DNA of 12,503 bases from Candidatus Krumholzibacteriia bacterium (GTDB taxonomy: Bacteria; Krumholzibacteriota; Krumholzibacteriia; Krumholzibacteriales; Krumholzibacteriaceae). The DNA is taken from the NCBI GenBank assembly GCA_963836185.1, contig CAWIIQ010000005.1, positions 1 to 12,503 on the forward strand, written 5' to 3'. The translations under genes and the position numbers were made by a program. The number at the start of each line of letters is the position of its first letter. Position 1 is the first letter of the stretch. Of the stretch, positions 1 to 12,503 are shown one piece after another. The notes below the pieces were generated by a model that did not search any database, was not told the origin of the DNA, and was given only the letters and a program-made list of their open reading frames with translations.

Positions 1-3000
1 CAATATCTTCAAGGATAGCATCAGCTCTTCCCTCGGGTCACGGCCCTCCTCGAAAGCGAATGCGTAGCCTGCCGAGAATGTCGTCTGCAGCGACGAGAAG
101 AAGACGATCTTAAGGTTAAGCTGTGTGCCGGCGTTGACTACCTCGACCCCTTCGTAGTCCGGATCGACATTCGTCGCGATGGCCGAACCGAAGAAGGTAA
201 GGCTGGCCCAGTTGCCATACAGCGACGGCCATCCGAGAGAGGAGAATCTCAGTGGTGGCAATGTCCATTCTACCATCCCCTTGAGGAAGTTAGTGCCGCC
301 GATCTCGTTGAGATCGACTCCGGGAAAGGCGTAAAACTCCCTGTACCTGTTGACGCTCCTGTGGTCGACCCAGTTGTTCCCGAATCCCCCGAAGAAGAAG
401 TACGAGTTTGATTCCTCCCTGTCGCCGAATGAGAAGCCTCCGGATGTCCTGAGCCATATCGAGGAATGGTCCCACGGGAGGAGGAATCCATAGTCCAGCG
501 TTCCCCAGAAGAGGGGGTAGGGGGATCCATTGACAAGTGAGTTATATCCGTTCAGTGAGAACTTGATTCCTTTCTCGGCCTGGATACCACCGATCGTTCC
601 TCTTGTATGGCTGTAGTGGAGGGACCCCTCGAGAGTGTAGAAATCCTTTATAGTCGCCTGCACGTTCTGGTAGTGGGGGAGATACTCGAGGTTTCCATAG
701 GCCGCGGCGCGGATATTCAGCCCGAGTTTCCTCGGTCTGTCTACCACGAATCCGTAGTCGTAATCGAGGGCGAGCGAATGCCCTTTCCTGCTGACCTTGG
801 TCGGGCCGAAGAGGTCGTAGAAGTCGGCGCGGTTGTAATAACCGGTCGCCGCCCACCTGCCCCTTGCATACTTGAACCTGAAGTGGGCCCGTTCGTTCTC
901 CGGCAGGTTAGTGTTGGGAGTGTAGGAAGCGGCCATATCGAGCGCGTTTATCCCCACCGGGTCCATCATGTTGAAACGCAGGCCGATCGTACCGTATTTC
1001 TTGTATCCCTCGACGATCGGGTACAGCGAGGTTACTCTGAGGTTCTTTGTCGGGCTGTACTCACCCTCGTATGTCACCAGTGAGTCGATCTCGATCTCCC
1101 TCGGCGACGAGAGTTTCCAGTCGTCGACGACGGGGTGTTCCAGGATAACAGCCTGGCCGAGATATCTCACTGCCGCTACATCTTCTATCGGCTTTACAGG
1201 TATCATGACCGGTTCGAAGCCTTCGCCCGTATAGATGAAGGTGATCAGCGAATCGTCCGAGACGGGGAGGGGGCGGAAACCGCCGATCTCAAAGTTGCTC
1301 ATCGCCTCGAGCTCCCACTGTTCTAGGTCGAACCTGAATATATTCGATGTGCCTGTAACGTATGAGCTCCCATAGAGGTAGCGTCCATCGGCCGAGTGTA
1401 CGAAATTGGCCGCGTTATTGTCTTTAAACTCATGGATCAGTTCCCACGTGCCGTCACCGAACATCAGCCTTTCCGTCTCCATCCTGATAAGCTTCTGATC
1501 GCCGCTTATGTCGGTCAGGGTGCCGGTCAGATACCTGCCGTCCGGAGAGATATCGATATCGAACATATCGAGCCCGTACCTGAGCTTGAGGAGCTCGTAA
1601 CCGTCAGTGTAGGGGGGAGTGAACATCACGATGCTGCTGAACCCGTTGTCGTGTCTCATGCCCCAGATCGTCGAGTCGGCCCGGCAGTAGACGAGGTCGC
1701 CGGTACGGTTGTTCTTGCAGAGGACTTTCGTTTTCCCGGTGGCAATATCGACAGAGTTCAGATCTCGCCAGCCCCTGCTGTTGTCTGTCGTGAAGAAGAG
1801 GGTCCCGCTGTCAGGATCATGGGCGAGTCCGGTCACGTAATAGAGAGCGGGGGTCTCGATCTCACAGATCTTTCTCATCTTTCCCGTGTCGATATCTATC
1901 GCCGCTATATGAGAGAACTCGCCGGGATAGTTCACCGCTGTGTAGAGCGTGCGGGTCCCGGGATCGAAGAACTCCCTCGAGACCGAACCGAGCGGGCGCT
2001 CGCACAGCTTCCTGGCGGGGGTCACTGGATACTGCCGTATCGAGTCGAGGTTGGTCGCCTGCCACTTCTTCTCGAACTCGATCCATTCGTCCCATTTTTC
2101 GTAGATCGACGCCCCGTATACGTTCCTGAACTGTTTCGAGAAGTAGGCCCCGCTTCCCTCGTTGCGGCGCACCCATTCGATAACCGAATCGGGGCCGTAC
2201 ATCAGCGAGAGGTAGCTGAAGAAACGCGTGCCGTAGAGGTAAGAGACCTGGCCGATCTGGAAATCCTTCGCCGTGCCTTCCGACTCGAGACCTACGACGG
2301 TATGGAACTGCATGCTGTCACGCACCATAGCCCTGAAAGTCATCTCGTCGTATCCGGTCAGCGACCGGCCGATCCCGCCCGCCATCCATGTCTCCATGAA
2401 GACGGCGATACCCTCGTGGTACCACCGCGGCGAGTAGAGCCGAGGCGTAGTAAGGTAGGCGTAGAAGATCGAGACGGGATCTTCCGCGACAGGGTGGACC
2501 TTGCCGAAGAAGAGCTTCCTGAATCTCGAATCCCATCCCGTAGCCTGGTCGGAGGCGGTCACATGGACGAGCTCGTGATTCATTACCCAGTTCATCCGTT
2601 CGTTAGTCGGGCATGTATCGTATACGTACTCGAACGGCTCGATACCGAGGGTTATCCAGTTGTTGGGGATCACCGTGGTTCCGGCATACCCGTAATCATC
2701 GTCATCGTTAAAATAGACCGTGACCTCACCGCTGGGCTTGTAGTCGAAGAACTTCTGGTGATAACGGAAAGCGTTCTCGAAACAGCGGGACATGTGTTCT
2801 ATCACATATTCCTGCTCCCTGAAGAAATAGAAGACCCTGAGGTCTTCTGTCTGATACGTCCTGTATTTAAGCTGGTACGGCTTTTCCTGAACGTAGTCGT
2901 CCTGGCCCGACGCCCGCTGTGGAACGAGAAAAATCGCCGCGGCGGCGATAAGAATGGAGATCGGGCGAAGAATCAGTCCGGCGGTCGATGTGAAACCTCT

Positions 3001-3003
3001 CAT
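1..3003 (-). CDS. Large exported protein: zinc metallopeptidase (gluzincin/peptidase MA-like) + TolB/PD40-like beta-propeller + C-terminal outer-membrane beta-barrel (Omp85-like); stop codon lies outside the window
   Basis: Manual translation from ATG at 3003 (RBS-like AAAGGAAAAAG) gives MRGFTSTAGLILRPISILIAAAAIFLVPQRASGQDD (signal peptide). It contains NHELVH (HELVH at 2563-2577), PRWYHEGIA as third-ligand motif (~2404-2430), the propeller motifs DISPDGRYL and HSADGRYL, and amphipathic strands with YFFFGGFGNNWVD, ending ...EELMLSLKIL at base 1. The ORF track lists no minus ORF in this frame, and the long plus ORFs 607-1083, 1135-1326 and 1396-3135 are its in-register antisense shadows. Confidence 0.9.
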   Translation of the reverse strand, partial: MRGFTSTAGLILRPISILIAAAAIFLVPQRASGQDDYVQEKPYQLKYRTYQTEDLRVFYFFREQEYVIEHMSRCFENAFRYHQKFFDYKPSGEVTVYFNDDDDYGYAGTTVIPNNWITLGIEPFEYVYDTCPTNERMNWVMNHELVHVTASDQATGWDSRFRKLFFGKVHPVAEDPVSIFYAYLTTPRLYSPRWYHEGIAVFMETWMAGGIGRSLTGYDEMTFRAMVRDSMQFHTVVGLESEGTAKDFQIGQVSYLYGTRFFSYLSLMYGPDSVIEWVRRNEGSGAYFSKQFRNVYGASIYEKWDEWIEFEKKWQATNLDSIRQYPVTPARKLCERPLGSVSREFFDPGTRTLYTAVNYPGEFSHIAAIDIDTGKMRKICEIETPALYYVTGLAHDPDSGTLFFTTDNSRGWRDLNSVDIATGKTKVLCKNNRTGDLVYCRADSTIWGMRHDNGFSSIVMFTPPYTDGYELLKLRYGLDMFDIDISPDGRYLTGTLTDISGDQKLIRMETERLMFGDGTWELIHEFKDNNAANFVHSADGRYLYGSSYVTGTSNIFRFDLEQWELEAMSNFEIGGFRPLPVSDDSLITFIYTGEGFEPVMIPVKPIEDVAAVRYLGQAVILEHPVVDDWKLSSPREIEIDSLVTYEGEYSPTKNLRVTSLYPIVEGYKKYGTIGLRFNMMDPVGINALDMAASYTPNTNLPENERAHFRFKYARGRWAATGYYNRADFYDLFGPTKVSRKGHSLALDYDYGFVVDRPRKLGLNIRAAAYGNLEYLPHYQNVQATIKDFYTLEGSLHYSHTRGTIGGIQAEKGIKFSLNGYNSLVNGSPYPLFWGTLDYGFLLPWDHSSIWLRTSGGFSFGDREESNSYFFFGGFGNNWVDHRSVNRYREFYAFPGVDLNEIGGTNFLKGMVEWTLPPLRFSSLGWPSLYGNWASLTFFGSAIATNVDPDYEGVEVVNAGTQLNLKIVFFSSLQTTFSAGYAFAFEEGRDPREELMLSLKIL

Positions 3004-3028
3004 CTTTTTCCTTTGAATGAAACGCGAC

Positions 3029-3069
3029 AGGAAGGAGGCAGCCCGGTCGGTGCCGGGCTGCTCCTTCCT
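3029..3069 (-). terminator. Strong intergenic stem-loop (mRNA-stabilising hairpin or leaky terminator)
   Basis: AGGAAGGAG(G)CAGCCCGG-tcggtg-CCGGGCTGCTCCTTCCT forms a 17-bp stem with one bulge, between the repeat gene stop (3116) and the next start (3003). There is no clean U-tract directly after the stem on the minus strand. Confidence 0.6.
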
Positions 3070-3115
3070 ACCACTCATCCCCTCTTCCGCTTCATGTCAA
3101 AAGTGCGAGGGACCC

Positions 3116-5079
3116 CTAAATATCCCTGCTTATAGACGACCTTTCCATGACGGAGGCCCTGTTGAATACCGCGGCTCTTTCCTGGACCGAGAAGCGTCCC
3201 ATGATCGAGGCCTTCTCCGTGATGGAGGCCCTGTTGAATACCGCCGCTTTCTCCATGACCGATGCGCGCCCCATTATGCTGACCTTCTCCTGCACCGAGA
3301 ACCTGTTCATCAGGGAGGCTTTCTCCTGGATCGAGAACTTTTCCTGCATGACGGCGGCCTTCTCCTGTACCGAGAGCTTGTCGAAAGCTTCCATGGTGAT
3401 CTCGGCTCTTTTCATGATAGAAGTACGTTCCGCGACTTCCAGGCGGTTCATCAGTTCCATGCGTTCCATGGCTGTAGATCGGTTGAATATCGCTGCTTTC
3501 TCCTGCACGCAGCAGCGCTCGAACATATCGGACTGCTCCTGGGCGGTGGCCCGGGCGAACACGTTCGATTTCTCCATGACCGAAGCCCGCTGGAAGATGA
3601 ACGCTCTGCCTTGTATGCTGGCCCTCTCCATTATGGAAGCTTTCTGCGCTATCGAGGCACGCTCCATGATCGAACTTCTCATCTGGACCGATGTACGCTC
3701 CATGATGCTGGATTTTTCCTGTACCGAGAACTTCTCCATCATTGCGGCCTTCTCCTGTATCGAGAACTTGCCCATGATCGAGGATTTTTCCTGCATCGGG
3801 AGCTTGTCGAAGGCTTCCATCGTGATCGATGATTTCTTCATTAGCGAGGTCCGATCCTGAACGGAAAGCCTGTTCATGAGCTCCATACGTTCCTGGACCG
3901 TGGCATGATCGAATATCGAGGCTTTCTCCGTGACCGAGGCGCGCTGCATGATGTCGGCACGCTCCATGACCGAGGCCCTCTCGAAGGTGAAGGAGGTCCG
4001 GCCCATGATGCTGGTCCTCTGCATGATCGCTGCCTTCTCCATGACGGAGGCGCGCTGCATCATCTCAGCCCGTTCCATGACCGAGGCCCTCTTCATGATA
4101 CTGGACTTCGCCTGGATCGAGAACCTGTCCATCATGAATGCTTTTTCCTGGATCGAGAACTTGTTCATGACAGAAGCTTTCTCCTGCATCGGGAGCTTAT
4201 TGAAGGCTTCCATCGTGATCGAATGTTTTTCGAGCAGCATGGCGCCGGCCGGGGTGAGAGCTTCGTGTAGACCTTCATCTTTTCCTGGATGTTGGCGCGA
4301 TCGAAGATAGCGGCCTTTCCCTGGAAAGATGATCTCTCGAGTATCGAAGCGTGCTCGGGCGCCGAGGCACGGTTGAAAATAGCCGCCTTCTGCTGGACCG
4401 AGGTGCGCTGCATGATATCGATACGCTCCTGGACCGAGGTACGATTGAAGACAGCCGCCTTCTGCTGTATCGAGGCGCGCATCATGATATCGGCTCTCTT
4501 CTGGATGGAGAGCCTCTCCATGATAGCTGCTTTCTCCTGGATCGTAGCGGTCTGCATCAGGGAAGCTTTTTCCTGTACAGAGAACTTCTCCATCATGAGA
4601 GCTGATTTTTCCTGCATGGGCAGCTTGTTGAAAGCTTCCATGGTGAACGAGATCCTCTTCATGATGCTGGTTCTATCCTGGATCGAGAACCGCTGGAACA
4701 TGGAGACACGTTCCATCGGAGTCGCACGCTCGACGAGAGAGACGCGCTCCTGCATTGGGACGAGGTCGGCGAACGCCGCTTTCTCCTGGATCGAGACCCT
4801 CTGCATGAGATTGGCCTTCTCCTGCATATCGGTGCGCTCGAACAGAGCTGCCATTTCCTCAGGGGAGATGATATTGTCGATAGTGTATTCCGACTCGTAA
4901 TCCCCCTCGAAATTCAGTACAACGTCCTCGTCGCTCATCTGCTGGTCACGGTGCTTATCCACCACTCCTATCGTCCCCTCGGCGCCTTCACGGCCTGTGG
5001 GAGGATGGAAGAAGGCGAAGTAGGCGACCACTGCGATCGCGATCAGGACAACCACCAGTAGAACCTTGTTCTTGGTCAT
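3116..5079 (-). CDS. N-terminally anchored or secreted Met-rich hexapeptide-repeat protein (~654 aa when the two ORFs 4165-5079 and 3116-4240 are joined across a 1-nt frameshift at ~4241-4257)
   Basis: Strong RBS AAGGAGG before ATG 5079. N-terminus MTKNKVLLVVVLIAIAVVAYFAFF is a signal or TM helix. Both ORF halves carry the same [RK]-x-[SA]-[IV]-[MQF]-[EQN] repeats and the same ITMEAFxKLPMQEK-type block, and adding one base restores the repeat register. Confidence 0.85.
3119..4860 (-). repeat. Degenerate coding tandem repeat: 18-nt/6-aa unit (often paired as 12 aa), roughly 90 units, with a higher-order ~131-143-codon super-repeat
   Basis: Example run: RASVME RAEMMQ RASVME KAAIMQ ... KLPMQE KSSIMG KFSIQE KAAMME KFSVQE. 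Recurring DNA words on the plus strand include ttctcctg, ccatgaccgaggc and gatcgagaac. Confidence 0.95.
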
Positions 5080-5136
5080 CTGGTGCCCTCCTTCTGGTAA
5101 ATGGGTTTCTGCCGCTTGCTGATTTACTGTTCACCC

Positions 5137-5166
5137 TAAATACAGGCGGGTCTTGCCGAAAGTTGG
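5137..5166 (-). promoter_or_regulatory. Putative ECF-sigma promoter for the repeat-protein gene
   Basis: Minus strand reads CCAACTTT-13 nt-CTGTATTTA: an AAC-type -35 and a TGTA -10 separated by 17 nt. The same two boxes occur upstream of the sigma gene. Confidence 0.7.
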
Positions 5167-5182
5167 TCGGATCCGCCTGTTT

Positions 5183-5920
5183 TTATTCTCCGGCGGAATA
5201 TTTCGTCGCCGCCACAGTCTTGCCATCGGTGAAGATCCGCAGCACGAAAGACGTGGATCCCGCCGATCTGAGTCTGACGATATATTCCGCGATGCCGTTA
5301 TGTACGAGCAGGAGGCTCTTTTCATCGACCTCCATCTGGTAGGCAGCTCCCTCGCTCGACCTGATCGACTCGAAGGATGTTCCATCCTCGAACTCGAGGA
5401 GGATGCTGGCATCCGCCTCTGAAGCCAGGTCTAATGTGATAGTCGCAGAACCGCTCTCGAATACGGGGGTTATGCTGCCCTTCACCCCGAAAGCGTCGAA
5501 TCTTCCTGTGGTCTCATCTTCTCCGGAAGCCGCTCCGATAGTCGCTCCGTATCCAGGTTCATCCGGTGCCCGGTCCGGCAGCTGCCGTATCGCGGCGAAG
5601 AGTATGAATCCTGCCGCTACGCCGGCAGCGAAGACCGGCACGAACGACCGCCAGAAAACGTTTCTTTCGGGGGGGCGGGCCACTGCCTCTTCCAGGGAGC
5701 GTTCGTATACCGAACTGAAGATCCGTTCCCTGAGTTCGGAGGGTGGCTCGACATCTCTCGTGCCGTCGATAGCCTCGACCGTCGCCCGAAGCTCCTTGTA
5801 GTATCTCCCGGCCTCCGGATCGGAGCTGACATATGAAGCGAGTCTCTCAGCGTCCTCATCGGAGATGACACCGTCGATCTCCTCGTTCATCATCCTTATG
5901 TATCTTTCATCTATGGTCAT
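5183..5920 (-). CDS. Membrane-bound anti-sigma factor (RsiW/RseA-type topology)
   Basis: Starts 3 nt after the ECF sigma stop. The N-terminal anti-sigma-like helices (MMNEEIDGVISDEDAERLASYVSSDPEA) lack the HxxxCxxC zinc ligands. A single TM segment (FVPVFAAGVAAGFILFAAI) is followed by a beta-rich extracytoplasmic C-terminal domain. Confidence 0.8.
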   Translation of the reverse strand: MTIDERYIRMMNEEIDGVISDEDAERLASYVSSDPEAGRYYKELRATVEAIDGTRDVEPPSELRERIFSSVYERSLEEAVARPPERNVFWRSFVPVFAAGVAAGFILFAAIRQLPDRAPDEPGYGATIGAASGEDETTGRFDAFGVKGSITPVFESGSATITLDLASEADASILLEFEDGTSFESIRSSEGAAYQMEVDEKSLLLVHNGIAEYIVRLRSAGSTSFVLRIFTDGKTVAATKYSAGE

Positions 5921-5923
5921 GAC

Positions 5924-6454
5924 CTACACCGCCCCTGTAAGTAATTCCTTCATCCGCTGCCTGGCTGAGTAAAGCCTGGACTTCACAGTCTTCTCATGGA
6001 TCCCCAGCACTTCGGCTATCTGGCTGTACGAGAGATCGACGAAGTGCCTGAGGATGATGACCACCCTCTGGTCCTCGCTGAGTCTCTTGAGCGCCGTCTG
6101 CACGAGCCCGTTCGACTCCTCACGGATCAGCTGCTGCTCCGGTCCCGGAGTGCGGGAGGGAGGGTCGAATTCGACGTGCACTATCCTGCTCTGTCTTTTG
6201 ACCTGATTGAGGGATTCGTTGACGCCCATCCTGTAGAGCCAGCTGAAGAACTTCCTCGAAGGATCGAAGGTCTCCAGCCTGTCGAAGGCCTTTACAAATA
6301 CTGTCTGTGTTACGTCCATGGCTTCCTCGTAGTCGCCGCAGATCCTTAACGCGAGGTTGAAGATCCGCCGCTCGTACTTCTCCACCAGCCTTCCGAACGC
6401 TTCCCTGTCTCCATTCAGCGTCTCGTTGACCAGCGATGAATCCGTTGTCGACAT
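5924..6454 (-). CDS. ECF-family (sigma-70 group 4) RNA polymerase sigma factor
   Basis: Region 2 GDREAFGRLVEKY...EAMDVTQTVFVKAF...KFFSWLYRMGVNESLN; region 4 LSEDQRVVIILRHFVDLSYSQIAEVLGIHEKTVKSRLYSARQRMKELL. Start placed at MSTTDSSLV (6454) rather than the 6517 start in the ORF track, which fits the usual ECF N-terminus. Confidence 0.95.
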   Translation of the reverse strand: MSTTDSSLVNETLNGDREAFGRLVEKYERRIFNLALRICGDYEEAMDVTQTVFVKAFDRLETFDPSRKFFSWLYRMGVNESLNQVKRQSRIVHVEFDPPSRTPGPEQQLIREESNGLVQTALKRLSEDQRVVIILRHFVDLSYSQIAEVLGIHEKTVKSRLYSARQRMKELLTGAV

Positions 6455-6482
6455 AAATACAGACCAACCATGAAAAAGTTGG
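6454..6482 (-). promoter_or_regulatory. Putative autoregulatory ECF promoter of the sigma gene
   Basis: Minus strand reads CCAACTTT-12 nt-CTGTATTTA(TG), with 16 nt from AAC to TGTA. The boxes are identical to those at 5137-5166. Confidence 0.7.
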
Positions 6483-6643
6483 CGGCCGGTATGGAAAACG
6501 TCCTCCGTCCGGCGCACTTCGATGGCCGGTGACGGAGGACGATACCGGAATACCGGACCGTGCCACAGCCGTCACGCTCGTGCTGCAGGTGTTGTTGTAA
6601 ATCCCTTGTGTTAGAGAGCTTGTGAATCAGAGTAAAATAACTT

Positions 6644-6931
6644 TTACTTTATGTCAAATATAAAGTCGAATCCGGCGATGGTGAAGATATCGCGGATGTG
6701 AGAAGTCATGTTGATGATCTCAAGCTTGTGACCTTTGTCGATGAGGCGTTTCTGGGTGCCGAGAAGGAGGCCGAGGCCGGCGCTGGAGATATATCGCAGC
6801 TCCGCGAAATCTACCTTTACCGTCGTTTCGACCTTTTCGAGGACGGTCCTGGTCGTATCGACCTGGTTCGAGTCGAGCCTTCCGGCGAGTCTTATCGTTC
6901 CATCTCCCGCTACCGATATGTCGAACGTCAT
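6644..6931 (-). CDS. STAS-domain anti-anti-sigma factor (SpoIIAA/RsbV-like)
   Basis: 95 aa; LAGRLD and DFAELRYISSAGLGLLL with the conserved phospho-acceptor serine. Its start overlaps the upstream stop (ATGA). Confidence 0.92.
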   Translation of the reverse strand: MTFDISVAGDGTIRLAGRLDSNQVDTTRTVLEKVETTVKVDFAELRYISSAGLGLLLGTQKRLIDKGHKLEIINMTSHIRDIFTIAGFDFIFDIK

Positions 6932-7332
6932 CTTTCCTCCAGGCGCTTCTTTACCGTGATGACCAGGGTGCCGTCATCGTAGTCGTATTCCAGGCTGTCC
7001 GCCATCTTTTTTACGAGATGGATGCCGAGCCCGCCCGGCTCGCGTTCCATCAGCGGAGCTTCAGTGTCGACTTCGCCGAGCGAGTTTCCATCGAACGGTC
7101 CGGTCTCGCGGTCGGTAAGGCGGATCGTTATAAGGCCGTCATCGAGTTCTATCTCGACATCGATATTCTCGCTTCCGTTGGCGTGACGCACGAGGTTTGT
7201 GAAGAGCTCTTCGAGCGTCAGGTCGAGGAAGTAAGATTCGGGATCCTCGAGGCCGTTGCAGGTCTCGAACTCTTCCGCGAACGCGAATAGCGCATCGAGC
7301 GATCCTATATCTCTTCTGAACGTTCTCCGCAT
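6928..7332 (-). CDS. Anti-sigma factor serine kinase (RsbW/SpoIIAB-like HATPase)
   Basis: N-box LTLEELFTNLVRHA, TDRETGPFD and G2 box REPGGLGIHLVKKMAD. The start is uncertain (7332 or 7353). The 7455 extension in the ORF track crosses the AT-rich divergent regulatory region. Confidence 0.9.
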   Translation of the reverse strand: MRRTFRRDIGSLDALFAFAEEFETCNGLEDPESYFLDLTLEELFTNLVRHANGSENIDVEIELDDGLITIRLTDRETGPFDGNSLGEVDTEAPLMEREPGGLGIHLVKKMADSLEYDYDDGTLVITVKKRLEER

Positions 7333-7384
7333 GGCTGAAGATGTTAACTGCATTCGTGATCTGATGCAAGCGGACTTCGCTCTT

Positions 7385-7447
7385 ACCTCGTAATACGGTA
7401 ATAAATTATCGTAAAACAATAAAAATTGCTTGAAAAACGGCAACATT
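7385..7447. promoter_or_regulatory. Three tandem operator-like sites at 21-bp spacing in the divergent intergenic region
   Basis: acctcg-taata-cggtaa (7385), ttatcg-taaaa-caataa (7406, near-palindromic) and tgcttg-aaaaa-cggcaa (7427). The third site overlaps a possible TTGAAA -35 box at 7430. Confidence 0.55.
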
Positions 7448-7498
7448 ATGTTCATTCTACCCGTATACGGAACAGGATTCTAAATGAAAGGAGCCGTC

Positions 7499-8131
7499 AT
7501 GACGGTACAGGGATTCAAGCCCTCCGCGGCGACGAAGGTATCGGTGGTAGTAGTCGAGATCCTCTTCTGGCTCGCCGTTCTCGCGATGCTTCTCTCGGTC
7601 GTTCTCGTGATCGCTGTGAACTTCACTCCATTCCATGTGAAGTATACGCGTGCCCCGGTTGAAGTATGCTACATCGCCGGTGGAGGAGGCTGGCTGCAGG
7701 GACAGGACCTTTCGATCACCAGCTCGAAGATCACCGGGTACAGCCGGCTCGTCATGGAGAACGGCGAGAAGGGGTTGCAGAGGATCTTCGTCATAATGCC
7801 GCTGCTCCTCTCGATGCTTTTTCTCGGGATAGTGATGATCCTCAGGAAGATCATCAAGTCTATAAAGAGCGGTACACCCTTTACACGGGTGAACGCCGCG
7901 AGGATAAGGGCGATGGGCTGGCTCGTGATGGCGGCCGGTCCTTTCTGGGGCATTCTCGAGTACATCTACGCGTGGATGTGGCTGCCGAAGATAGGGATCG
8001 AAGGGGCGAAGATCTATATCGAGCCCGACTTCCGTGTATTCTATATATTCGCCGGTCTTGTTATCGTAGTAATCGGGCACGTATTCCAGTACGGCGTGAG
8101 CCTGTGTGAAGACAGCGAACTGACCGTCTGA
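7499..8131 (+). CDS. DUF2975-family multi-pass membrane protein
   Basis: Four hydrophobic segments, the motif LRKIIKSIKSGTPFTRVNAARIRAMGW and the C-terminus IGHVFQYGVSLCEDSELTV, all typical of DUF2975 proteins. It is followed by the usual HTH partner. ATG 7499 has RBS AAAGGAG; 7484 is an alternative start. Confidence 0.88.
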   Translation: MTVQGFKPSAATKVSVVVVEILFWLAVLAMLLSVVLVIAVNFTPFHVKYTRAPVEVCYIAGGGGWLQGQDLSITSSKITGYSRLVMENGEKGLQRIFVIMPLLLSMLFLGIVMILRKIIKSIKSGTPFTRVNAARIRAMGWLVMAAGPFWGILEYIYAWMWLPKIGIEGAKIYIEPDFRVFYIFAGLVIVVIGHVFQYGVSLCEDSELTV

Positions 8132-8142
8132 GGGAGGGTGTC

Positions 8143-8355
8143 ATGGCAATCAACGTTAATCTCGACATGATGCTCGTCAGACGGAAGATGTCCCTTACGG
8201 AACTCTCGTCCGAGGTGGGAGTGACGATCGCGAATCTCTCCGTCCTCAAGACAGGACGGGCCAGGGCCGTCCGGTTCTCGACACTCGAAGCTGTCTGCAG
8301 GGCTCTCGACTGTCAGCCGGGGGATATACTTGAATATATCCCCGATAACGGTTAG
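8143..8355 (+). CDS. Cro/C1-type (XRE, YozG-like) helix-turn-helix transcriptional regulator
   Basis: MAINVNLDMMLVRRKMSLTELSSEVGVTIANLSVLKTGRARAVRFSTLEAVCRALDCQPGDILEY; RBS GGGAGG. Confidence 0.95.
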   Translation: MAINVNLDMMLVRRKMSLTELSSEVGVTIANLSVLKTGRARAVRFSTLEAVCRALDCQPGDILEYIPDNG

Positions 8356-8395
8356 TCTCCTTTCCATGATTTTCTGCATGTGAAAGGAGATACCG

Positions 8396-9130
8396 ATGAG
8401 ATACCTGACGATCCTCGTTCTCGCCGCCTGTATCCTGATGCCCACGACCGCGTGGAGCGGCAAGTACACTCTCGAGCACCAGGCTATTGCAACAGTCGAG
8501 CTGCCCAAGCCTCTCTTGAGCAGTGATTTCTCGATAGAAAAGGTCCTCCATGAGCGCAGGTCGGTAAGGAAATATACCGATGAGCCCGTTACGCTGGAGG
8601 AAGTCTCACAACTTCTCTGGTCCGCCTACGGGATCACCTACACGAAGGAAGGACTTCCCGATTTCATACGCGGCGGGTTCAAGACCGCACCCTCAGCCGG
8701 CGCGCGTTACCCGCTCGAGTTATATCTGGTAGTGGGAAACGTAAAAGGGCTCCTGCCGGGGATATACTGGTACGTACCTGAGGGTCATCTGATCCACAGG
8801 CTCGCCGATGGCGATATCCGAAGCGACCTGATGGCGGCTTGCCTTAGCCAGCCGTTCGCCGGTGAAGCTCCTGTATCGATCGTCTGGTCCGCCGTCTACG
8901 AGAGATGCACGGAGAAGTACGGGGAGCGCGGGCATGACAGATACGTCTGTATGGACCTCGGTCACTCGGCGCAGAACGTCTATCTGCAGTGCGGCTCCCT
9001 CGGGCTCGGCACCTGCGCGATCGGCGCCTTCTCCGACGATGCCCTCAAGAAGGTGATCGGGATGACAGAAGAGGAAGTGCCTCTCTACGTGATGCCTGTC
9101 GGCAGGCTCCCCAGGGAGCACAAGAAGTAA
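8396..9130 (+). CDS. SagB/ThcOx-family FMN-dependent dehydrogenase (nitroreductase fold) with predicted N-terminal signal peptide
   Basis: FMN-binding motifs ERRSVRKY, TAPSAGARYPLELY, DLGHSAQNVYL and LGLGTCAIGAF; RBS AAAGGAG; N-terminus MRYLTILVLAACILMPTTAWS. Confidence 0.9.
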   Translation: MRYLTILVLAACILMPTTAWSGKYTLEHQAIATVELPKPLLSSDFSIEKVLHERRSVRKYTDEPVTLEEVSQLLWSAYGITYTKEGLPDFIRGGFKTAPSAGARYPLELYLVVGNVKGLLPGIYWYVPEGHLIHRLADGDIRSDLMAACLSQPFAGEAPVSIVWSAVYERCTEKYGERGHDRYVCMDLGHSAQNVYLQCGSLGLGTCAIGAFSDDALKKVIGMTEEEVPLYVMPVGRLPREHKK

Positions 9131-10299
9131 TGATAATACTCGACAGGCCGTATGTATCCGATTTTCTCGCCGAAACACTTCAGCGCCTCCGGACGCCGGT
9201 GCTGCGAAACGCAGTCTCTGAAAAGGTTGCCGAGGAATACGACCTCGCTCTCCTCGACGGGGAGGAGTTTGCCGCGAGGGCCAACGCCGAGAAGTATCCC
9301 CGGATCTATACCAGCTCGGAGGACGCGATCGGTTGGATCGCCGAAAACCTCAGGCCGTCCGGACTTCCCTACAGGATCGATCGGCTGAAGAACAAAATCG
9401 ATTTCCGCGCGATGATCGAGGAGGACCATCCGGAGTTCTTCTACGCCGGTATAGATGTCGATGCGCTCAGGCATCTTGACCCCTCAGAGCTCCCCAAGCC
9501 GTTCGTCGTAAAACCGGCGGTCGGATTCTTCAGCGTGGCGGTCCGGAAGATAGAATCTGACGAGGACTGGCCCGCCGCCCTCAAGTCGATCGAGGATGAT
9601 CTGGAGAGTTTTAGCGGGATGTACCCCGGACAGGTATTCGATCCGGGGCAGTTTATCATCGAGGAAGGGATAAAGGGTGAGGAGTTCGCAGTAGACGTCT
9701 ATTACGATGAAACAGGCAGGCCGGTGATTCTCAACGTCCTTCATCATCTCTTCTCATCGGGGACGGATGTCAGCGATACGACATATATCACCTCGAAAAA
9801 TATAGTTGAGTACGGCATCCGGATGTTCACAGGGCCCCTTGCGAGGATCGGGAAGCAGGCCGACCTTAAGAACTTTCCCCTTCATATCGAGCTGAGAGTG
9901 GACGGCTGCGACATCGTTCCGATAGAGGCCAATCCGATGAGGTTCGCCGGATTCGGCGGAACCGATTTCGGCTGGTACGCATGGGGCATCAACACGCATG
10001 AGTATTTTCTCGAGAGAAAGATGCCCGACTGGAATTCGATCTTCGCCGGGAAAGAAGACAGGGTCTATTCGATGTATGTTGCCTTCATCCCCGAGGGTGT
10101 TCCTGTCGAAGATGTAGAGGAAATAGATTACGAAGGCTTCGCGGCCAACTTCGATAAGGTGATCGAGCTCCGGAAGACAGACTGGCGCACTTACCGTGTC
10201 TTTGCATTTGCTTTCACGGAGACTGGCCCCGGAACCGTGGCAGAGATCGAGCGGAACCTGCAACTCGACCTGTCGCAGTATGTACTTCTCAAGGACTGA
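9130..10299 (+). CDS. ATP-grasp domain protein (carboxylate-amine ligase-like), substrate unknown
   Basis: LKNKIDFR, PFVVKPAVGFFSVAV, FIIEEGIKGEEFAVD, HIELRV and PIEANPMRFAG. The start at ATG 9130 is coupled to the upstream stop (TAATG); the 8989 extension in the ORF track overlaps the previous gene. Confidence 0.9.
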   Translation: MIILDRPYVSDFLAETLQRLRTPVLRNAVSEKVAEEYDLALLDGEEFAARANAEKYPRIYTSSEDAIGWIAENLRPSGLPYRIDRLKNKIDFRAMIEEDHPEFFYAGIDVDALRHLDPSELPKPFVVKPAVGFFSVAVRKIESDEDWPAALKSIEDDLESFSGMYPGQVFDPGQFIIEEGIKGEEFAVDVYYDETGRPVILNVLHHLFSSGTDVSDTTYITSKNIVEYGIRMFTGPLARIGKQADLKNFPLHIELRVDGCDIVPIEANPMRFAGFGGTDFGWYAWGINTHEYFLERKMPDWNSIFAGKEDRVYSMYVAFIPEGVPVEDVEEIDYEGFAANFDKVIELRKTDWRTYRVFAFAFTETGPGTVAEIERNLQLDLSQYVLLKD

Positions 10300-10304
10300 G
10301 ACAG

Positions 10305-11129
10305 ATGGCTCTGCGCCGCAAGACGATAATTGCGCTGATCCTCCCGTTACTGCTGCTTGCGGTCCTGTCCGCGCTCGCGCTTCGTATTCCCCGCCTTCGA
10401 ACCGCTCTGAGGATAGTCGATGGATTCGAACCGCTCGAAAGTTACGAACTGGTCTATTATGAGCAGGGATCGGAAGAGTACGCCAGGCGTATAGCAGAGA
10501 CGCTGCCGGGTGCGATCGAGCGTATAGAGTCCCTGCAGGGCCGCCCTTTCCCGTCCCTGCCAAGGATCTACATCTGCGCGACTCATGAAAGATTAGCTGA
10601 ACAAATAGGCGAGTCACCGGAAACGGCCGTTCGCGGCATCGCGTTCAAGCGTGATATCTGGCTCTCACCCCTGATCTTCTCGTTTTTCGGAAAGGATACT
10701 CACGCCCAGTCCCTGCTGCATGAACTGTCCCATACTCATATCAGCCAGCACCTGAGCTGGTTCCATCGCGTCAGGAAGATCCCTGCCTGGTTCAACGAGG
10801 GACTGGCGGATTGGGTCTCAGGTACGGGAGAGGATCGGATCTCGCGGAGTGAAGGGATCGCCGCAATCAGGGCGGGGAGAGCCCTGGCGCCTGATGATAC
10901 GGGGCAGTTTCCCAGGCCGAAGGAGCCGGCGGACTACGGCCTCTCGTGGCCTATGCTTCATGTCCAGTCTTTGATGTTCGTAGAATATCTAGCGGAGCGG
11001 GACAGAGAGGCGTTCGACGGCTTTCTCGGTGATTTGCTGGACGGGGAGGACTTCGGTCCTTCGTTTGTCCGGCAGTTCGGTGCGGGCCCCGGTGTAATCT
11101 GGGAAGAATTCACGGGCACGCTGGAGTAG
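10305..11129 (+). CDS. Membrane-anchored zinc metallopeptidase (peptidase MA-like gluzincin)
   Basis: N-terminal hydrophobic anchor; LLHELSH (HExxH) followed by PAWFNEGLADW; SLMFVEYL helix. Confidence 0.85.
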   Translation: MALRRKTIIALILPLLLLAVLSALALRIPRLRTALRIVDGFEPLESYELVYYEQGSEEYARRIAETLPGAIERIESLQGRPFPSLPRIYICATHERLAEQIGESPETAVRGIAFKRDIWLSPLIFSFFGKDTHAQSLLHELSHTHISQHLSWFHRVRKIPAWFNEGLADWVSGTGEDRISRSEGIAAIRAGRALAPDDTGQFPRPKEPADYGLSWPMLHVQSLMFVEYLAERDREAFDGFLGDLLDGEDFGPSFVRQFGAGPGVIWEEFTGTLE

Positions 11130-11205
11130 CGGCTTGCTTGCAGGATCATTTCGGAATATTGTAAGCTTCGTCTGAAATCATGGTATCCGATCAAGGAGGA
11201 ACTTC

Positions 11206-12445
11206 GTGTTCAGGAAAATAACAATTTTTATCTTCGTTGCTCTATCTCTGGTTATATCAGGATGTGGGGGAGGCGGAGGTGACGGCACGACAGAGATCGT
11301 GATATGGGAACAGAAGGACCCTGTCGAACAGGACGTCCTCAACAGGCAGCTCGATGCCTACATGGCGAGCCATCCCGGTGTCAACGTCTCTACGGTACAC
11401 TTCGAGACCGACCTTCTCCACAGCCAGTTCCAGACTGCCACTCTCGCGGGAGGCGGCCCCGACCTCGTGTACGGGCCGAGCGACAAGATCGGTCCTTACT
11501 CAGTGATGCAGCTGATCATGCCTCTCGAGAAGATATTCGACGCGGCCTTCTTCGGCGCGTATGAGAAGTCGTCGCTCGGCTGTCCTCGAAGGGCACAATT
11601 ACGCGGTGCCCGACCAGATCGGCAACCACCTGATGCTGATATACAACAAGGCGATGGTAAAGTCGGTCCCGAAGGATACCGATGAGTGGATAGAGATCTG
11701 CAAGGACCTCACCGTCGACGAAAATGGAGACGGGATGCCGGAGATATACGGCGTCGTTTTCAACTCTGTCGAGCCTTTCTGGCTCGTTCCCTTCCTCGGC
11801 GGATTCGGTGGATGGGTGATGGATAAAAATTTCGCACCGACTCTCGACACGCCGGAGATGGCAAAGGCGCTCGCCTTCATGGCCGACCTTCGCAACAAGC
11901 ACAAGATTCTCCCGAAGGAATGCAATTACGAGCTGAGCGACACGATGTTCAAGAAGGGCCAGGCGGCATTTATCATAAACGGTCCCTGGTCGCTCAAGGC
12001 TTACATCGAGGCGGGGATGGATATAGGTGTAATGGCGATCCCGATGATAACGGAGACGGGGAATTACCCGGCACCGATGGTATCGAGCAAGGGATACTCG
12101 ATAAGCGTCAATGTCAAGGACGAGAAACTCCCTGCTGTAAAGGAACTCCTCGTCTATCTCACCGGAGAAGCGGTCCAGAGGGAGATCACCTCTGAACTGA
12201 AGATCCTTCCCGCCCTCTCCAGCCTCGCCACCGACGAAGTCCTTCTTTCCGACCCGGTGCTGAAAGGTTCGATGGAGCAGGCGCTGCACGGACAGCCGAT
12301 GCCGGTCGTGCCCGAGATGCGGGCGATCTGGGACGCGATGCGACCCTATTACCAGTCCGTGATGGGAGGGAAGCTCGACCCGACCGAGGCGGCCAGGGAC
12401 ATGCAGGAGCAGGCCGTCAGGAAGATCGCCGAGATGAGGGGATAG
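11206..12445 (+). CDS. Sugar (maltose/maltodextrin-type) ABC transporter substrate-binding lipoprotein, frameshifted at ~11575-11582 (sequence error or pseudogene)
   Basis: GTG start with RBS AAGGAGG; lipobox LVISGC; GGGPDLV in the first ORF; GHNYAVP, LIYNKAMV, FKKGQAAFIINGPWS and PMPVVPEMRAIW in the second ORF. The span of 1240 nt is not a multiple of 3. Confidence 0.85.
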
Positions 12446-12447
12446 GC

Positions 12448-12503
12448 TCAGTCAGAAGTGCGGGGGAAGACCTTCTCTATCAGCCCGTGCACATCCTCGA
12501 GTA
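12448..12503 (-). CDS. Possible 3' end of a convergent gene (partial)
   Basis: A minus frame reads ...LEDVHGLIEKVFPRTSD* with TGA at 12448-12450, right next to the stop of the binding-protein gene. It is too short to identify. Confidence 0.35.
   Translation of the reverse strand, partial: LEDVHGLIEKVFPRTSD

Follow-up and report, generated by a model that had tools for sequence, protein, structure and literature searches.

A leader-tagged, predicted helical repeat protein and its predicted peptidase-propeller-Omp85 partner in Krumholzibacteriota

Introduction

The window considered here is a stretch of 12,503 nucleotides from Candidatus Krumholzibacteriia bacterium (assembly GCA_963836185.1, contig CAWIIQ010000005.1, positions 1 to 12,503 of the forward strand). 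Its minus strand carries a gene for a long, highly repetitive protein and, downstream of it, a gene for a predicted outer-membrane partner with peptidase, propeller and Omp85-type barrel domains; genes for an extracytoplasmic function (ECF) sigma factor and a predicted anti-sigma factor lie upstream (Table 1). Several described systems resemble parts of this cluster. The N-domain of MgtE (PF03448; structures 8gpv, 8gps, 2oux and 2zy9) and the armadillo-like motifs of FliG are built of 12-residue helix-turn units similar to those predicted for the repeat protein. In contrast to MgtE, which has about nine units, about 46 are found here, in a protein that is predicted to be extracytoplasmic and has no CBS or transporter domain.

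In two-partner secretion, a long repeat cargo with an N-terminal recognition element (TpsA) is encoded adjacent to its dedicated Omp85-family partner (TpsB), as is observed here. The TpsB class is treated among the Omp85 proteins (PMC4104836). The present cargo is predicted to be helical, carries a 22-residue leader rather than a TPS domain, is paired with peptidase and propeller domains rather than POTRA, and appears to be under the control of a sigma factor and PrsW. No TPS domain was detected on the cargo in Pfam and NCBIfam scans, and only ~50 residues separate anchor and repeats. Curli (CsgA/CsgG) and Fap likewise combine a signal, a short targeting leader and repeats with a dedicated outer-membrane channel, and the Fap system also includes a peptidase. 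Here the subunits are predicted to be helical instead of beta-solenoids, the channel scans as Omp85-type and not as a CsgG- or FapF-type channel, and the Pfam and NCBIfam scans that were run gave no curli or Fap family match. Fungal Kex2-processed repeat proteins and the precursors of ribosomally synthesized and post-translationally modified peptides (RiPPs) possess a conserved leader, variable repeated cores, regular basic residues and a co-encoded peptidase. The conserved leader and co-encoded peptidase are present in this cluster, whereas near-identical cores between dibasic or specific sites are not: the cores are heterogeneous, the basic sites single and the enzyme fused to a barrel, and the conserved cluster has no tailoring enzyme.

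A WD40-like subfamily of Omp85 proteins was described by Heinz and Lithgow in 2014 and likened to a BamA-BamB fusion (PMC4104836). The partner likewise has a predicted propeller ahead of its Omp85-type barrel, on weak profile matches; the main text of that study mentions no peptidase, cargo or operon for the subfamily, all of which are found here. The Metallo Omp85 subfamily of the same study carries PF00149, in contrast to the HExxH domain of the partner.

The sigma-W/RsiW/PrsW system of Bacillus subtilis comprises an ECF sigma factor, a membrane anti-sigma factor and a PrsW-family protease. Genes for all three are present in one cluster here, and the promoter spacing is like that of the sigma-W type. 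PrsW is the site-1 protease of RsiW; the same source describes PrsW fused to toxins, a layout different from that of the present cluster (PMC3482391). The cluster differs from the Bacillus system in its diderm hosts, its outer-membrane peptidase-barrel and a repeat protein that is sometimes itself the outer domain of the anti-sigma factor.

No description of the cluster was found in the full-text literature, coverage of which is thin for subscription journals; nothing there joined PrsW, Omp85 and a sigma factor, or Krumholzibacteriota and Omp85. An ECF group with such a neighbourhood may be listed in the supplement of PMC7826278. The parts of the cluster are known families, and their combination falls outside the definitions of MgtE, two-partner secretion, curli/Fap and repeat precursors. 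The novelty concerns the layout of the system, the activity being a prediction, and the cluster points to an unstudied envelope processing system common to several bacterial phyla. If this is correct, the propeller-bearing Omp85 proteins, for which the main text of the 2014 study describes no tested function, would have a client that can be named and a site at which it is predicted to bind; an Omp85 barrel would also be coupled to a protease acting on leader-tagged cargo. Since the leader is short and apparently indifferent to the cargo that follows, binding, cleavage and export are directly testable.

Conserved leader and its partner

The first 66 residues of the repeat protein contain a hydrophobic anchor and a conserved leader, both of which, like the partner and the operon, escaped a sequence-only reading of the window: the range flagged there, 3119..4860, stops 219 nt short of the gene start at 5079. 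The leader consensus is G[TA]IG[AGV]xxKYRxxQ[IM][ST]xxDVxL, a 22-residue tag in which G, G, Q and D are invariant in 31 of 31 aligned rows. Out of 1.84 billion, 716 representatives match the leader profile at E 0.001; at 1e-10 the number is 129. The 30 leader loci come from genomes labelled Krumholzibacteriota, Bacteroidota/Ignavibacteria, Calditrichota, Acidobacteriota and Fibrobacteraceae, and the nearest named relatives, from Candidatus Krumholzibacteriota, are 91-92% identical over the N-terminal 66 residues. The cargos downstream of the leader cannot be aligned between lineages (periods of 6, 8, 9, 11, 12, 16, 26 and 34, and some non-repetitive, helical-looking tails), while the partner remains 45-88% identical.

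The partner is predicted to be a propeller-bearing Omp85-type protein from a PD40 match approximately at the Pfam cut-off, an Omp85_2 match below it, and Atlas neighbours at 0.98-0.99 that are named WD40-like, TolB or D15; a comparison with PDB sequences gave one weak propeller match (E 0.016). The Pfam scans returned no POTRA match, the N-terminal part being composed of peptidase and propeller. The HExxH motif, together with a downstream W-x-x-E-G motif, is found in all 25 partner loci, and in each of them the partner lies downstream of the repeat gene. In the remaining five of the 30 loci the available DNA ends inside the repeat gene (four) or 0.6 kb past it (one). Across 121 genomes of the phylum, the leader and partner profiles match 40 genomes each, and these are the same 40; in 36 of them the two genes are no more than 3.5 kb apart on a single contig and in the other four they are on separate contigs, in a count that includes non-independent kin and some genomes that helped to build the profiles. 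An adjacent, dedicated Omp85-family partner, as in two-partner secretion, is thus observed. The pair is patchy within genera (e.g., 3 of 4, 3 of 6 and 1 of 6 genomes). Of the cross-phylum loci, 18 could be evaluated, and 17 of these have a PrsW-family gene (Pfam E 1.8e-17) after or close to the partner, as do all 13 further loci with the operon; the PrsW gene of the source genome lies beyond the window end and is present on the second haplotype of the assembly (contig C1, see below).

The leader is predicted to dock on the partner. Complex models of repeat-protein residues 21-62 with partner residues 45-1001, both supplied as alignments, scored 0.81, 0.81 and 0.79, compared with 0.00 for the best of three controls. 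Of 157 solved pairs, 116 attain the score mark, as do 2 of 215 mismatched ones; for custom alignments these counts are only approximate. The runs share at least 86% of contacts, with a predicted local distance difference test (pLDDT) of 60-62 for the partner. In the model, leader residues 34-57 occupy a groove lined by the peptidase (65-73, 134-138 and 207-217), the propeller (476-567) and the linker (606-635), in which 18 of 48 interface columns are ~90% conserved or more, compared with 269 of 952 overall. Neither chain has a close solved sequence relative, so that recall of a known complex is less likely.

Leader-bearing proteins were compared in a set of 180 sequences (the best 150 representatives and the 30 loci), of which 157 fit the motif pattern. 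In 18 of the 157, 110-160 extra N-terminal residues without a hydrophobic stretch precede the anchor in frame; two of these extensions were scanned and both match an anti-sigma profile, below cut-off. The same in-frame fusion is encoded at locus L054 of the set.

Several side observations concern these proteins. The fusions (P0046, P0048, P0110, P0120, P0124, P0140 and others; L054:7629-8001) have an internal Met just before the anchor, and the residues ahead of it are those that a Shine-Dalgarno site would encode, as deduced for the DNA from protein records; such genes may yield both fused and stand-alone forms. Two genomes, G125 and G130, have two leader matches each. In G055, a second leader-bearing frame of 109 codons (L064:3057-3504) is preceded by the promoter motif and stands apart from any cluster genes.

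Structure of the repeat

The sequence-only reading had described about 570 residues of hexapeptides phased by Lys/Arg. The array and its phasing stand: 193 and 375 repeat residues are encoded in two minus-strand frames (4258-4836 and 3119-4243), and Lys/Arg residues are spaced by exactly six in 66 of 91 intervals (20 of 31 in the 5' half and 46 of 60 in the 3' half), compared with a mean fraction of 0.07 and a maximum of 0.23 in 1000 shuffles. The scarcity of Gly and Pro was also borne out, with six of each among the 568 residues. The pattern [RK]-[AFTS]-[SA]-[IV]-[MQF]-[EQNG], which was taken to run nearly without interruption, fits only 31 of 66 hexapeptides; 52 of the 66 differ from one another, the phase is interrupted by four 10-residue inserts and a few 7-residue units, and the true repeat unit is 12 residues rather than six. 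Identity autocorrelation is 0.30-0.35 and 0.30-0.33 at lags 12 and 24, and 0.21-0.26 and 0.20-0.24 at lags 6 and 18 (shuffles, ~0.07-0.08). Lags 12 and 24 exceed lags 6 and 18 in both halves of the window gene and in four of four homologs tested, and the tandem period at the DNA level is 36 nt.

A position model parsed 41 twelve-residue units in the window, with S/T at position 1 (83%), E at position 4 (76%), K/R at positions 5 (96%) and 11 (86%), and hydrophobic residues mostly at positions 2, 8, 9 and 12. Among 523 tabulated units from the window, six orthologs and seven distant members, Pro occurs at positions 1-3 with one case at 12, and never at 4-11; Lys/Arg is the residue at position 5 in 87-96% of units and at position 11 in 86-93%. 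Interpreted with the established rules of helix capping, this pattern suggests that the unit is a capped 10-residue helix followed by a 2-residue turn. Clear helix-capping boxes are seen in distant homologs. The four inserts partition the array into blocks of 131-143 residues and belong to a 98-nt repeat family (D6), the copies of which are spaced by 426, 393 and 428 nt; the insert motif is kept in orthologs, and a similar insert recurs in distant members. Met makes up 10% of the window protein.

The repeat is very likely a helical solenoid of the MgtE-N kind, an option that the sequence-only reading had raised as a 12-residue alpha-solenoid and that has gained ground. Pfam MgtE_N scores 39.2 and 37.4 bits on the two halves against a cut-off of 25.9 and reaches E 7.6e-39 on a distant family member. 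The AlphaFold model of an intact ortholog contains one N-terminal helix and 49 short helices (pLDDT 61.3, predicted template modelling score (pTM) 0.27), and that of a 108-residue window fragment, computed from an alignment of 47 in-register segments of close and distant members, contains nine helices (pLDDT 67.1, pTM 0.43); neither has a strand. With the nine-unit fragment model, MgtE structures fill the top 10 rows of Foldseek (E 0.11-0.55, TM 0.47-0.57) and the top three rows of VIA, the best VIA row being 8gpv with Z 9.3 and a root-mean-square deviation of 5.6 over 108 aligned residues, a Z that is unremarkable for helical repeats, for which values under 13 are weak. The full-length model retrieved only generic long solenoids (Foldseek, TM ~0.2).

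A left-handed beta-helix or an amyloid-type beta-solenoid, whether as the fold of the hexamer-like members or as a form to which they convert, is very unlikely. The statement that the repeat does not match the left-handed beta-helix pattern was too strong, as the LpxD profile of NCBIfam matches the 3' open reading frame (ORF) at E 3e-19 and LpxD/LpxA profiles match the intact ortholog down to E 3.5e-33, both under the curated cut-off, and Pfam LbH_EIF2B scores 44.4 bits in the window (cut-off 54) and 65.3 bits, above cut-off, in the ortholog. The dominance of a hydrophobic period of six and the modest confidence of both models point the same way. Nevertheless, MgtE_N outscores LbH_EIF2B relative to the respective cut-offs, and the all-helical models and the capping boxes favour helices. 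Lag 18 lies below lags 12 and 24 in six of six sequences, so the periodicity of an 18-residue left-handed coil is absent. The Pro residues fall on positions that include a would-be inward strand position. No left-handed beta-helix is listed among the fragment rows of Foldseek and VIA, a result that is weak as an exclusion. The beta-solenoid or amyloid fibre that had been put forward as another option is disfavoured on these grounds.

The repeat protein is not an MgtE transporter, judging from its domains: scans of both halves and of a whole ortholog with Pfam and NCBIfam gave neither a CBS pair nor the multi-pass MgtE membrane domain, and a single hydrophobic segment is present. A confident full-length match to a characterized repeat family did not emerge, the MgtE_N match being partial and the repeat-family profile finding none of the PDB sequences at E 0.1. 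The ESM Atlas gave no usable match for the repeat protein, and a word-index search of 5007 candidates with the 3' ORF gave two matches, of which one is a family member and the other a chance match of low complexity. The family analysis also corrects an annotation: the family fragment P0001, which closely matches the repeat protein of locus L070, is named Mg/Co/Ni transporter MgtE in its source database.

Two other members deserve mention. The G092 protein (L057:6775-8559) consists almost wholly of hexapeptides ending in ER, and repeated half-unit changes break its 12-residue register. A second, orphan 12-mer repeat protein of G007 (L063:2357-4675, a frame of 773 codons) lies away from the cluster and has a hydrophobic N-terminal stretch and no recognizable leader.

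Proposed processing and alternatives

We tentatively propose that the repeat protein is a dedicated client of the peptidase-propeller-Omp85 partner, to be freed, captured, cut and released. A separate predicted ECF promoter would drive production of the repeat protein in excess, and the PrsW of the operon would free it from its predicted inner-membrane anchor. The freed protein would dock via its leader on the outer-membrane partner, which would unwind the helical rod and cut after the phased Lys/Arg residues; the pieces would leave through the Omp85-type barrel. The same PrsW step would feed back on the sigma factor, and in the fused forms the cut would also free the anti-sigma domain.

The leader lies ~11 residues from the anchor, so that the protein probably has to be freed from the inner membrane before it can reach the outer-membrane partner. 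PrsW suggests itself for this step because it is the site-1 protease of RsiW, and the 18 in-frame fusions with a presumably cytoplasmic anti-sigma-like domain suggest that cleavage of the anchor is tied to release of the sigma factor. Release by signal peptidase I was considered as an alternative. The residue two before the first Gly of the leader is A, V, T, L, S, M or G in 97% of the 157 sequences, a signal weakened by the fact that this Gly was fixed by the search pattern; the candidate site lies ~11 residues beyond the hydrophobic stretch, which counts against signal peptidase I, and constant cutting by it would fit poorly with the anti-sigma fusions.

Cutting at basic residues is consistent with several features. 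Lys/Arg is near-invariant at both half positions of the unit, and half-unit changes are tolerated in the G092 protein with its hexapeptides ending in ER. Simulated cutting after Lys/Arg places 82% of residues in 5-10-mers for 12-mer-type cargos (19 cargos, including four of period 8 or 9, after removal of six close relatives), 52% for other cargos and 23% for control ORFs. Of 104 cargos, 59 are enriched in a hydrophobic-x-basic motif at z over 2, compared with 13 of 150 control ORFs.

Several observations weigh against this proposal. In 69 other cargos, Asp/Glu residues are spaced as evenly as Lys/Arg (median z -2.18 vs -2.15), and aliphatic residues are evenly spaced too in cargos outside the 12-mer group, so that the evenness may reflect only short amphipathic helices; specifically even spacing of basic residues outside the 12-mer group was rejected as a criterion on this account. 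The idea of the sequence-only reading that the array is a polyprotein cut at basic residues therefore fares unevenly: the co-occurring peptidase-barrel is a plausible enzyme for it, and the Lys/Arg spacing of other members lends it no particular weight. Outside the strict 12-mer group, 45 of 92 cargos do not exceed z 2 for the hydrophobic-x-basic motif, and two of 88 cargos are poor in Lys/Arg. Since 52 of 66 hexapeptides differ, cutting would yield a mixture of peptides, which is odd for a signal. The capping boxes, the conserved 10-residue insert and the constant length of 651-654 aa in three genera point to selection for a fold. In the complex model the zinc ligands lie outside the confident interface, the conservation of which is only modestly higher than elsewhere (mean 0.72 vs 0.65). 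In PlpD, an enzyme-bearing Omp85 protein, the enzyme domain remains periplasmic (PMC11116518), and by this precedent enzyme-bearing barrels need not export anything.

A role as periplasmic adaptor, sponge and sensor rather than product is possible and nearly as likely as that of a client. In this role, the Met/Ala-rich amphipathic helices would capture foreign peptides or damaged envelope proteins for delivery to the peptidase by way of the leader. How far the protein is occupied would govern cutting by PrsW and, through it, the sigma factor, in analogy to CpxP with DegP and RsiV with lysozyme. This role agrees with the anti-sigma-like domain fused in frame in 18 of 157 proteins, the 10% Met of the window protein, the docking of the leader outside the catalytic site in the model, and the fact that any amphipathic helical cargo appears to suffice. 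Cargos with a 9-residue period match STI1/HOP DP profiles (E 7.5e-10 and 9.4e-12), although low-complexity cargos produce many spurious Pfam matches. The pairing of ECF sigma factor and PrsW is a stress-response layout (PMC3482391); however, a genome-wide search with a strict form of the promoter motif, which missed known copies, found a single site and hence no wider regulon in the source genome. Neither the near-invariant Lys/Arg at both half positions nor the tolerated half-unit changes would be required of an adaptor.

It is improbable that the repeat protein is exported largely whole. In that case the peptidase would remove just the leader, and the chain would pass through the barrel to the cell surface and refold there into a rod, an adhesin or a matrix fibre; the route would resemble that of a two-partner secretion cargo or of the curli subunit, which has a short targeting leader. 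Such export would suit the order of signal, short conserved leader and long repeat, the dedicated Omp85 partner, the separate promoter and stem-loop, the conserved fold features and length, and the second leader-bearing frame of G055 under the same promoter motif. It is opposed by the lack of a POTRA match in the partner, by the cargos, in which no conserved C-terminal anchor or adhesin domain was seen, and by the precedent of PlpD (PMC11116518).

Returning to the client proposal, its fullest form is a new diderm secretion-processing class, in which the leader would address interchangeable helical cargos to a propeller-gated zinc-peptidase barrel, dozens of short peptides would be released, and the PrsW cut would also activate the sigma factor. 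We consider this form possible, though less likely than not.

Regulation

A promoter motif (CCAACTT, ~15 nt, TGTA.TT), the shape of which is of the ECF type, precedes both the repeat gene and the sigma gene. Its stricter form gave no match in 200 shuffles of the window. Of 22 loci, 19 carry the looser form ahead of the sigma gene, and of 30 loci, 19 carry it ahead of the repeat gene; elsewhere in ~320 kb, read on both strands, it occurs 13 times. A scan of the window for sigma-70 promoters and terminators gave results at chance level. An ECF sigma gene lies upstream in 22 of 30 loci, six others lack upstream DNA, and two Acidobacteriota loci have no sigma gene despite full flanks. These two (L049 and L053) keep the repeat gene, partner and PrsW and have no promoter-motif match before the repeat gene.

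A 99-nt stretch with the stem-loop after the repeat gene folds with -51.1 kcal/mol (z -3.9, 0 of 200 shuffles), and inverted repeats were seen by eye after the repeat gene in other loci. The separate promoter and the stem-loop suggest that the repeat protein is produced in excess over the partner. RNA-library contigs from related organisms (one library) map to the repeat gene, one of them over 238 nt with one mismatch; this is weak evidence of expression, as DNA may be present. The partner gene is not covered by these contigs, and the run was chosen via the repeat region, so that the expression of the two genes cannot be ranked.

In the window (6452-6482), the GTA of the sigma gene promoter lies 3 nt before the ATG of the sigma gene, and the same spacing is seen in most of the loci compared. 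If the geometry is that usual for ECF promoters, transcription would begin at this ATG or beyond it; the transcript may be leaderless, or may yield the anti-sigma factor without full-length sigma factor, a possible negative feedback.

Integrity of the gene and the assembly

The two ORFs of the repeat are one gene, running from 5079 to 3116 on the minus strand. Six relatives, which belong to three genera, have the gene as a single open frame of 651-654 aa. The window gene has 1964 nt, compared with 1959, 1956, 1956 and 1962 nt in four aligned orthologs, and is one base short within 4236-4276. Because the six relatives encode the gene whole, the frameshift is very probably an assembly error, of the kind made in long reads. 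It is reached only by inference, since none of the public read-run contigs mapped across 4236-4276 bridged the break; the mapped runs contain 5-21% of the window words, their source being related organisms.

Indels are frequent in this six-contig assembly. The entire window (1-12503) duplicates C1:1943419-1954985 at ~91% identity, as a strain haplotype; a paralogous origin of the C1 match was rejected, because the locus is the same in a 91.6% identical haplotype. Contig C6 overlaps the end of C1 at 95.6%. The C1 copy of the repeat gene breaks at two other places, and the partner gene is intact on the window contig and in seven pieces on C1. A solute-binding-protein gene (window 11206-12445) has a frameshift near 11580 and is intact on the C1 haplotype and in a relative; one public contig lacks the extra base at 11580.

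There is only a slight chance that the frameshift is genuine in the window strain, leaving a broken gene and a truncated protein of 304 aa, a matter separate from the function of the family. Both haplotype copies are broken within ~20-40 nt of each other and, as noted, no public contig spanned the break. However, the breaks of the two copies fall on different bases, and a second one is present in the C1 copy; partner and solute-binding-protein genes are broken on opposite haplotypes, and in the latter the public contig supports the unbroken form. The 3' half of the repeat gene is 66-86% identical to its orthologs and contains no stop.

Features of the window and neighbouring genes

Table 1. 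Coordinates of the features assigned in the window
Feature	Position	Strand	Basis
Repeat-protein gene, ~654 codons, seen as ORFs 4165-5079 and 3116-4240	3116..5079	-	single-frame orthologs of 651-654 aa
Interval with one-base deficit shifting the frame, likely long-read error	4236..4276	-	length comparison with four orthologs
Hydrophobic N-terminal segment, residues 6-24, predicted membrane anchor or signal peptide	5008..5064	-	sequence; helix 3-24 in ortholog model
Conserved leader, residues 34-57, predicted docking motif	4909..4980	-	consensus, profile, complex-model interface
~46 twelve-residue helix-turn units, predicted MgtE-N-like alpha-solenoid	3119..4866	-	periodicity, models, fold searches
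Higher-order repeat copy 1, containing 10-residue insert	4594..4691	-	family D6; insert motif in orthologs
Higher-order repeat copy 2	4166..4263	-	family D6
Higher-order repeat copy 3	3773..3870	-	family D6
Higher-order repeat copy 4	3347..3444	-	family D6
Predicted outer-membrane partner: signal peptide, HExxH...E zinc peptidase, beta-propeller, Omp85-type barrel; 1001 aa, reaches contig end	1..3003	-	profiles, motifs, Atlas neighbours
Partner HExxH zinc motif: H143, E144, H147; third ligand E197	2563..2577	-	invariant in 22 of 22 aligned
Stem-loop after repeat gene, likely partial terminator or stabilizer	3024..3076	-	folding energy compared with shuffles
Shine-Dalgarno-like site of repeat gene	5087..5093	-	sequence
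Predicted ECF-type promoter of repeat gene (CCAACTT, spacer, TGTA.TT)	5138..5166	-	motif comparison
Predicted membrane anti-sigma factor	5183..5920	-	NCBIfam anti-sigma E 1.1e-9 (below cut-off); position; hydrophobic stretch
ECF sigma factor; start 6454 from ortholog comparison	5924..6454	-	profile matches
Second ECF-type promoter copy, ends beside sigma start codon	6455..6482	-	motif comparison
STAS (anti-anti-sigma-like) gene, conserved cluster	6644..6931	-	profile match; related loci
RsbW-like HATPase gene, conserved cluster; start approximate	6928..7455	-	profile match; related loci

The RsbW-like and STAS pair accompanies the cluster in most loci and is relocated behind the partner gene in L049, L061, L065 and L071. 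A pair encoding a DUF2975 membrane protein and an HTH_26 regulator (window 7484-8355) is absent from the 30 related loci by tblastn save one short fragment, and is likely a recent insertion. A second, small HExxH gene of the peptidase-MA-like kind (window 10305-11129) lies on the plus strand and has no counterpart found in the 30 related loci.

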